From NCBI RefSeq assembly GCF_003991155.1, contig NZ_CP031293.1: DNA of 64,000 nucleotides. One strand, written 5' to 3'. The translations under genes were made by a program, and so were the position numbers. Source of the stretch: Escherichia coli. GTDB lineage: Bacteria; Pseudomonadota; Gammaproteobacteria; Enterobacterales; Enterobacteriaceae. Positions 28,141 through 28,881 of the stretch are shown piece after piece. Positions within the stretch are counted from its first letter, which is position 1, and each line of letters begins with the position of its first letter. Under the pieces are notes generated by a model. The model worked only from the letters and a program-made list of their open reading frames with translations. It was not told where the DNA came from and made no database searches.

Positions 28141-28881
28141 ATGAATAAGGTTTTTGTTGTTTCAGTGGTGGCCGCAGCCTGTGTATTTGCAGCAAATGCA
28201 GGAGCAAAGGAAGGTAAAAGTGGTTTTTATCTGACCGGTAAAGCCGGTGCCTCTGTGGTGTCACTTTCAGACCAGCGTTTCCTGTCAGGAGATGAGGAAG
28301 AAACATCAAAGTATAAAGGCGGCGATGACCATGATACGGTATTCAGTGGCGGTATTGCGGCCGGTTATGATTTTTATCCGCAGTTCAGTATTCCGGTTCG
28401 TACAGAACTGGAGTTTTACGCGCGTGGAAAAGCTGATTCGAAGTATAACGTAGATAAAGACAGCTGGTCAGGTGGTTACTGGCGTGATGACCTGAAGAAT
28501 GAGGTGTCAGTCAACACACTAATGCTGAATGCGTACTATGACTTCCGGAATGACAGCGCATTCACACCATGGGTATCCGCAGGGATTGGCTACGCCAGAA
28601 TTCACCAGAAAACAACCGGTATCAGTACCTGGGATTATGAGTACGGAAGCAGTGGTCGCGAATCGTTGTCACGTTCAGGCTCTGCTGACAACTTCGCATG
28701 GAGCCTTGGCGCGGGTGTCCGCTATGACGTAACCCCGGATATCGCTCTGGACCTCAGCTATCGCTATCTTGATGCAGGTGACAGCAGTGTGAGTTACAAG
28801 GACGAGTGGGGCGATAAATATAAGTCAGAAGTTGATGTTAAAAGTCATGACATCATGCTTGGTATGACTTATAACTTCTGA
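28141..28881 (+). CDS. Outer-membrane beta-barrel protein of the Hek/Hra/Tia (OmpX/opacity-like) adhesin-invasin family
   Basis: Signal peptide MNKVFVVSVVAAACVFAANA; alternating aromatic beta-strand pattern; C-terminal ...MLGMTYNF; start 28141 preferred over 28126 on RBS GGAG. Confidence 0.7.
   Translation: MNKVFVVSVVAAACVFAANAGAKEGKSGFYLTGKAGASVVSLSDQRFLSGDEEETSKYKGGDDHDTVFSGGIAAGYDFYPQFSIPVRTELEFYARGKADSKYNVDKDSWSGGYWRDDLKNEVSVNTLMLNAYYDFRNDSAFTPWVSAGIGYARIHQKTTGISTWDYEYGSSGRESLSRSGSADNFAWSLGAGVRYDVTPDIALDLSYRYLDAGDSSVSYKDEWGDKYKSEVDVKSHDIMLGMTYNF

Follow-up and report, generated by a model that had tools for sequence, protein, structure and literature searches.

Identification of a hek (hra) allele, encoding a predicted afimbrial adhesin/invasin, in a pheV pathogenicity island of Escherichia coli

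INTRODUCTION

Hek, Hra1, Hra2, Hes and Tia are related outer-membrane proteins of pathogenic E. coli, and Hek is the one that concerns us most here. Passages of PMC2553418 that draw on Fagan & Smith (2007) and Fagan et al. (2008) describe Hek as still able to agglutinate erythrocytes after treatment at 70 °C, as autoagglutinating, and as mediating adherence and invasion. In the same passages, haemagglutination and autoagglutination are said to depend absolutely on loop 2 of Hek (citing Fagan 2008), this loop is described as differing between Hek and Tia, and the topology of Hek, with eight membrane spans and four loops, is given as a prediction. Both Hek and Tia bind heparan-sulfate proteoglycan, as stated in the relevant parts of PMC2553418, PMC5539235 and PMC7545054. 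Masking has been described for two relatives: LPS/O-antigen masks the homologue PagN, in the account given in a section of PMC2553418, and the secreted protein Aap masks Hra1 in EAEC.

Published identities are about 90% for Hek and Hra1, 86% for Hes and Hek, 90% for Hes and Hra1, and 65 to 67% for Hek, Hra1 or Hes against Tia (PMC7512150; PMC5539235). Many 'tia' calls are actually hra1/hek (PMC7512150). Epidemiologically, hra is enriched in UTI and blood isolates (PMC7512150; PMC7545054). PAI-UTI89-leuX has been published as carrying 'Hek, P pilus…', and the same entry is listed for PAI-536-leuX, PAI-S88-pheV, PAI-APECO1-pheV and PAI-CE10-pheU (PMC7545054). The existing literature thus already covers the gene as well as its association with pap, also on pheV islands (PMC7545054). 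Here we analyze such a locus in a stretch of 64,000 nucleotides of E. coli DNA (RefSeq assembly GCF_003991155.1, contig NZ_CP031293.1), referred to below as the window.

RESULTS

An intact outer-membrane protein gene with its own signals

The program-made list of open reading frames gives a plus-strand span of 28126..28881. Inside it, the ATG at 28141 opens a 246-aa frame, MNKVFVV…GMTYNF, whose coordinates are exactly those of WP_001045028.1, named just 'outer membrane protein' in the collinear RefSeq record NZ_CP070170.1 (Table 1). The spacing of a GGAG motif to this ATG and the RefSeq start together favor it over the ATG at 28126. The protein begins with a positive n-region, MNK, followed by a 15-residue hydrophobic core, VFVVSVVAAACVFAA, and by the cleavage motifs A-N-A and A-G-A, with a predicted cut after A20 or A22. 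At the other end, MLGMTYNF places hydrophobic or aromatic residues at -1, -3, -5 and -7 and finishes on Phe; F246, Y244 and G241 are invariant or almost so among 39 homologues. The sequence therefore has the hallmarks of a protein exported by Sec and inserted by BAM. The initial annotation had described a 246-aa beta-barrel with a signal peptide and a C-terminal aromatic motif, and all of these elements are present in the reading frame, in the Pfam OMP_b-brl match and in the AlphaFold2 (AF2) model.

The 60 nt 5' of hek are very AT-rich and contain overlapping sigma-70-like hexamer pairs, each with 9/12 matches; the promoter scan returned 7 sites against 4.4 expected in shuffles, which is non-significant alone. 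Downstream, a terminator-like hairpin begins 78 nt beyond the gene and suggests that hek is monocistronic. An obligatory operon with the upstream 122-aa ORF is unlikely, given the 217-bp AT-rich gap between them and the fact that other alleles are homologous only from about 20 nt 5' of the ATG. Control by RfaH through an ops element was also considered and rejected: the three copies of GGCGGTAG (4504, 10394 and 38624) and the single copy of its reverse complement CTACCGCC (47135) all lie far from hek. A tblastn search across the window found no second Hra-family copy.

Table 1. Features of hek and of the surrounding island in the window
Feature	Position	Strand	Basis
hek (hra) CDS, 246 aa + stop	28141..28881	+	ORF list; RefSeq CDS WP_001045028.1; Pfam OMP_b-brl; UTI89 identity; AF2
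Shine-Dalgarno GGAG, 9 nt 5' of ATG 28141	28128..28131	+	direct reading
Predicted signal peptide, residues 1-22	28141..28206	+	n/h/c regions read directly; AF2 lone low-confidence helix 3-22
Predicted extracellular loop 2, about residues 96-122, tip of strand 3-4 hairpin	28426..28506	+	AF2 strands 86-109 and 112-134
C-terminal beta-signal LGMTYNF, terminal Phe, outer-membrane insertion motif	28858..28878	+	direct reading; 39 homologues
AT-rich upstream stretch, two overlapping sigma-70-like hexamer pairs (weak, consensus only)	28086..28136	+	promoter scan
Intrinsic-terminator-like hairpin, 10-bp stem, 6 GC pairs, then T-rich tail	28959..28993	+	sequence scan
tRNA-Phe pheV attachment site	33687-33762	-	RefSeq annotation
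Tyrosine integrase of island	32224-33489	-	RefSeq annotation
TPR-containing hypothetical	30925-31968		RefSeq annotation
Phosphoethanolamine-transferase-like gene, 500 aa	29063..30565	+	Pfam Sulfatase, EptA_B_N
Hypothetical, 122 aa, WP_001275823.1	27555-27923		RefSeq annotation
GTP-binding (CobW-like) pseudogene, frameshifted and N-terminally truncated, between papX and hek	26475-26821	-	
papX, MarR-type regulator, last gene of papG-III operon	25439..25990	+	RefSeq annotation, Pfam
papG-III operon, papI to papX	16102-25990		RefSeq annotation
Beyond papI: IS66 element, then pgtABCP, then CDI toxin fragments			RefSeq annotation

The product is closest to Hek

By reading the leuX island of UTI89, we located an orthologue (NC_007946, 4785401-4786141) in the order papG-III, papX, GTPase pseudogene, hypothetical, outer-membrane protein (OMP), phosphoethanolamine (PEtN) transferase. 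The two proteins are identical at 243/246 positions (98.8%). All three differences, A18V, V40M and A74V, fall in the signal peptide, strand 1 and strand 2 of the model, respectively, and the loops are all identical. Comparison with the experimentally studied Hek of RS218 runs through UTI89, which the literature describes as closely related and as having the same island content. The exact protein belongs to a 1,280-member cluster at 90% identity, in which the names 'adhesin/virulence factor Hek' and, with less accuracy, 'Tia invasion determinant' occur. In contrast, the protein that RefSeq names 'invasion outer membrane protein Tia' shares only 64% of its amino acids with the window protein, and about 70% at the nucleotide level, and is strongly diverged in loop 2.

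Further clusters lie at 97%, at 91% (P0018, 1,218 members) and at 87% (P0163, 249 aa, with STEC-type accessions that their submitters named 'Hek'). P0018 and P0163 are 89% identical to each other, and each of the three proteins is 64 to 68% identical to Tia. This matrix agrees with the published one only when the window protein is taken as Hek; P0018 would then presumably be Hra1 and P0163 presumably Hes, assignments drawn from the matching published identity values rather than from reference sequences. By identity to characterized members (the UTI89, Tia, P0018 and P0163 values), the protein falls within the Hra family. The gene is thus evidently an allele of the known hek, typed as hra in ExPEC genotyping, of the heat-resistant-agglutinin (Hra) family. 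The initial annotation had proposed a Hek/Hra/Tia-family adhesin-invasin candidate linked to the pap operon. Its family and its linkage are borne out by the near-identity to an orthologue in a published Hek island, by the cluster name and by the distance to Tia. Its status as a candidate does not stand, since this is an allele of an already characterized gene in an already published linkage.

Domain searches agree on a small outer-membrane barrel outside the housekeeping families. Pfam OMP_b-brl matches residues 9-246 (E = 4e-21), with weaker partial matches to OmpA_membrane, Opacity and OmpW, and no NCBIfam model reaches its cut-off for the window protein. The rickettsial Adr model (Rick_Adr, NF052636) scores 96.6 bits against a cut-off of 210, and the OmpW models score 20.4 bits against 287 (NF008202) and 22.6 bits against 24 (PF03922), placing the protein outside both families. 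There is likewise no Ail_Lom Pfam match at E <= 0.01, which leaves it outside OmpX/Ail/Lom. The Opacity model PF02462 does exceed its cut-off (29.2 bits against 21), matching residues 119-216 only, and Opa60 is found over the same half (E = 8e-5); this appears to be a clan-level relationship, not orthology. When all PDB chains were searched by sequence, the matches at E <= 1 were Opa60, a Legionella barrel and NspA alone; OmpX, OmpW, OmpA and Ail were absent. A closer similarity to housekeeping OmpX/OmpW-type proteins, which would have counted against the initial annotation, is therefore not what these searches found.

A predicted eight-stranded barrel with a Hek-type loop 2

The AF2 model built on the 39 homologues (mean pLDDT 87.3, pTM 0.79) has a low-confidence helix at 3-22 followed by eight long antiparallel strands (29-49, 56-77, 86-109, 112-134, 141-166, 170-196, 201-220 and 226-245), the four long hairpins all lying on the same side and the short turns opposite them. 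The prediction thus shows the topology of the Hra family, a signal peptide, eight strands and four extracellular loops, and agrees with the one published for Hek (PMC2553418). A Foldseek search against the PDB returned eight-stranded barrels at 13-21% identity, namely NspA, the OmpA TM domain, Ail (including a heparin-analogue complex), OmpX, OmpW and OprG, and no solved Hra-family structure was among these matches. The resemblance to OmpX and Ail, at 13-15% identity, is one of fold only. The predicted loop 2, residues 96-122, is the same as in UTI89 (the comparison being made via UTI89, not RS218) and is diverged from Tia. Close alleles vary mostly within loop 1 (residues 44-58) and loop 2 (106-117), as would be expected for surface loops on this model.

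hek is cargo of a pheV island

The window is collinear with positions 756751-820750 of NZ_CP070170.1, from E. coli FDAARGOS_1284 (99.996% identical in the first 50 kb, 100% in the remaining 14 kb), and its positions 16000-40000 are 100% identical to that genome. We therefore took the annotation of the context genes from the RefSeq features of NZ_CP070170.1 and read the layout leftwards from the backbone genes speC and yqgA. The pheV tRNA gene, the integrase, this layout and a lowered regional GC content (40-47% against a window average of 49%) mark hek as cargo of a pheV pathogenicity island. Like its relatives, it lies on a tRNA-linked island beside a P-fimbrial operon. The hek start is 2,151 bp past the papX stop, in agreement with the figure of about 2 kb given initially.

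Several neighbors deserve a remark of their own. WP_001275823.1 has no Pfam or NCBIfam match; it is kept with hek in the leuX islands of F11 and UTI89 and is absent upstream of the other sampled alleles. The GTPase pseudogene is in the same broken state in F11 and UTI89. The papG-III gene (24169-25176) is annotated 'PapG carbohydrate binding domain-containing protein' (WP_204653559.1) here and 'PapG-III' in F11 and UTI89, and might represent a variant allele. At 6080-12303, between transposase remnants and IS66, the island carries the whole phosphoglycerate transport system (pgtP, pgtC, pgtB and pgtA). The stretch 1926-5112 contains fragments of VENN-motif pre-toxins together with a DUF596 gene and small hypotheticals, some of them frameshifted; they look like orphan contact-dependent-inhibition toxin/immunity modules.

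A shared module and a single locus with many alleles

Of 5,426 complete E. coli genomes, 1,812 carry a homologue of hek, which puts the reading frame far beyond chance. By nucleotide identity to the window gene, these fall at 99% or more in 355 genomes, at 95-99% in 432, at 90-95% in 289, at 80-90% in 114 and at 60-80% in 623. In 456 genomes the 2.2-kb block that runs from the hypothetical across hek into the beginning of the transferase gene is intact, and 244 have the stretch from papX to hek whole. A longer segment, 15748-30551, spans the genes from papI to the transferase, papG-III, papX and hek among them, and shares about 99% identity with the leuX islands of F11 and UTI89. Past the breakpoint, at the 3' end of the transferase gene (30551), the two kinds of island part: the pheV island continues with a TPR protein and a pheV-type integrase, the leuX islands with an AAA protein and a leuX integrase. 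This indicates that the module has been exchanged between islands.

For a comparison of the locus itself, four alleles were sampled besides that of the window, with UTI89 also compared; the identities given are to the window's proteins. APEC E12053 has papG-II, a Tia allele (64% aa) and the PEtN transferase (97.0% aa); STEC O113:H21 has a Hes-like allele (87%), the transferase (97.2%), the same TPR protein, an integrase and pheV; S30 has an OMP allele (91%), the transferase (96.2%), an integrase and leuX; UTI89 has Hek (98.8%) and the transferase (97.4%). W444 carries an allele at 67% nucleotide identity, without the transferase. In sliding-window comparisons the islands become homologous about 20 nt 5' of the OMP start codon; the most diverged part of every allele is the 5' third of the gene, and past the stop codon identity is back to 90-100%. 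The Hek, Hra1-like, Hes-like and Tia variants thus resemble mosaic alleles that share one locus, next to a conserved transferase.

The pair formed by an Hra-family OMP and the transferase (28120-30565 in the window) recurs in pheV and leuX islands, at the end nearest the integrase. The transferase-like protein matches Pfam Sulfatase (1.8e-37) and, weakly, EptA_B_N, and fits no curated NCBIfam PEtN-transferase model (EptA, EptB, CptA, MCR), the best being CptA at 107 bits against a cut-off of 404. It is apparently an uncharacterized PEtN-transferase-like subfamily carried on virulence islands. In APEC E12053 (locus positions 3631-5747), the Tia-type allele directly follows papG-II, with no papX. 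RefSeq calls this allele 'tia', and PMC7545054 lists 'Hek' on the pheV islands of the other K1 strains S88 and APEC O1; hek/tia naming may be inconsistent between sources.

DISCUSSION

We conclude, with a probability of roughly 0.93, that the window carries an intact hek, Hra-family cargo of a pheV island 2.15 kb past the papG-III operon, and that its product is an afimbrial adhesin/invasin acting through its surface loops. By homology, the protein would be a heat-resistant agglutinin, an autoaggregation factor and a proteoglycan-binding adhesin/invasin. The Sec signal peptide would direct export, and the C-terminal Phe signal would direct insertion of the barrel into the outer membrane. The surface loops, loop 2 foremost, would then bind host-cell heparan-sulfate proteoglycans, leading to adherence and cytoskeleton-dependent uptake, while self-association of Hek between bacteria would give autoaggregation. 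Hek would in this way serve as a short-range afimbrial adhesin working beside the neighboring P fimbriae. Because loop 2 is identical to that of UTI89 and diverged from Tia in the manner described for Hek, we infer the same mechanism, and hold with high confidence that the window protein would work as Hek does.

Other assignments of the protein fare poorly. That it should be not Hek but Tia, the invasin of ETEC and STEC, is very improbable. The label 'Tia invasion determinant' on one member of its 90% cluster points that way, as do the common family and the presence of Tia at the same locus, adjoining papG-II, in APEC E12053. However, an identity to the RefSeq-named Tia of only 64% (about 70% in nucleotides) and a strongly diverged loop 2 are hard to reconcile with that name, which PGAP gives to true Tia alleles and not to the window protein; numerous 'tia' calls are, moreover, hra1/hek in the literature (PMC7512150). 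We find it scarcely credible that the gene encodes a small housekeeping barrel like OmpX, OmpW or OmpA, serving in structure or transport and not as an adhesin. The fold does resemble the OmpA TM domain, OmpX, OmpW and OprG, and OmpA_membrane and OmpW give weak Pfam matches, but identity to these folds is 13-21%, the OmpW equivalog stays at 20.4 of the 287 bits called for, and no OmpX, OmpW or OmpA chain appears at E <= 1. Moreover, hek is an accessory gene, with a homologue in a third of the genomes (1,812/5,426) and in only 787 at 95% identity or more, and is island-borne, near an integrase and a tRNA gene.

A different kind of doubt concerns use rather than identity. The gene could be intact yet silent, for example as H-NS-silenced AT-rich DNA, or its product could be masked by O-antigen or capsule, leaving no in vivo adhesion role. 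The very AT-rich 60 nt upstream and a promoter scan no better than shuffles are compatible with silencing, and LPS over PagN (PMC2553418) and Aap over Hra1 in EAEC are precedents for masking. We nevertheless consider this unlikely: the ORF, Shine-Dalgarno sequence, terminator and loops are all conserved, hundreds of genomes retain near-identical alleles, and hra is enriched in UTI and blood isolates (PMC7512150; PMC7545054).

The gene and its context being known, the value of the result lies mainly in annotation: the RefSeq label 'outer membrane protein' hides a hek/hra virulence marker used in ExPEC typing. With hek recognized, the island is more readily read as a pheV island of the papG-III/hek kind, related to PAI II of J96-, 536- and UTI89-type strains, and the view of Hek, Hra1-like, Hes-like and Tia alleles at a single locus may ease the confused hek/hra/tia nomenclature noted in the literature. 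What is left of mild interest is the pairing of hek with the transferase and the contrast in their divergence. From the conserved pairing, this contrast (OMP 64-99%, transferase 96-97%) and the LPS masking of PagN, one may speculate that the Hra-family gene and the transferase form a functional two-gene module, in which the adhesin would be an allele that diversifies and recombines and the transferase might remodel the LPS core, lipid A or the adhesin for exposure or folding; we regard this as a long shot.

Set against known systems, the window protein has relatives in Neisseria Opa and NspA, Yersinia Ail, E. coli OmpX and Rickettsia Adr, which are likewise eight-stranded barrels with protruding host-binding loops but are at most 21% identical to it and belong to other families, related at the level of fold or clan. 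Salmonella PagN is a homologous eight-stranded barrel and a haemagglutinin, adhesin and invasin; a Salmonella homologue was found at 51% identity, and the relevant passages of PMC2553418 describe PagN as about 54% similar, heat-sensitive, not an autoagglutinin and possessed of another loop 2. Tia (the tia island of ETEC H10407; SE-PAI of STEC) shares family, fold and binding to heparan-sulfate proteoglycan, and in APEC E12053 it sits in the same slot, with pap on one side and the same PEtN transferase on the other, but its amino-acid identity is 64%, with loops 2 and 3 strongly diverged. Hra1 (heat-resistant agglutinin 1; porcine ETEC, EAEC 042) and Hes (LEE-negative STEC, LAA island) belong to the same family and the same locus architecture; the presumed Hra1-type and Hes-type proteins are about 91% and 87% identical to the window protein, with 92-100% nucleotide identity over the 3' two-thirds of the gene and only 56-90% over the 5' third, from signal peptide to loop 1. 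The closest system is Hek of neonatal-meningitis strain RS218 and of UPEC UTI89 and 536 (PAI II, leuX). To the UTI89 protein the likeness is 99%, with identical loops, the same predicted eight strands and four loops, and the same flanks of papG-III, papX, GTPase pseudogene, 122-aa ORF and PEtN transferase; the differences are three conservative substitutions and the seat of the module, in a pheV island here and a leuX island there.
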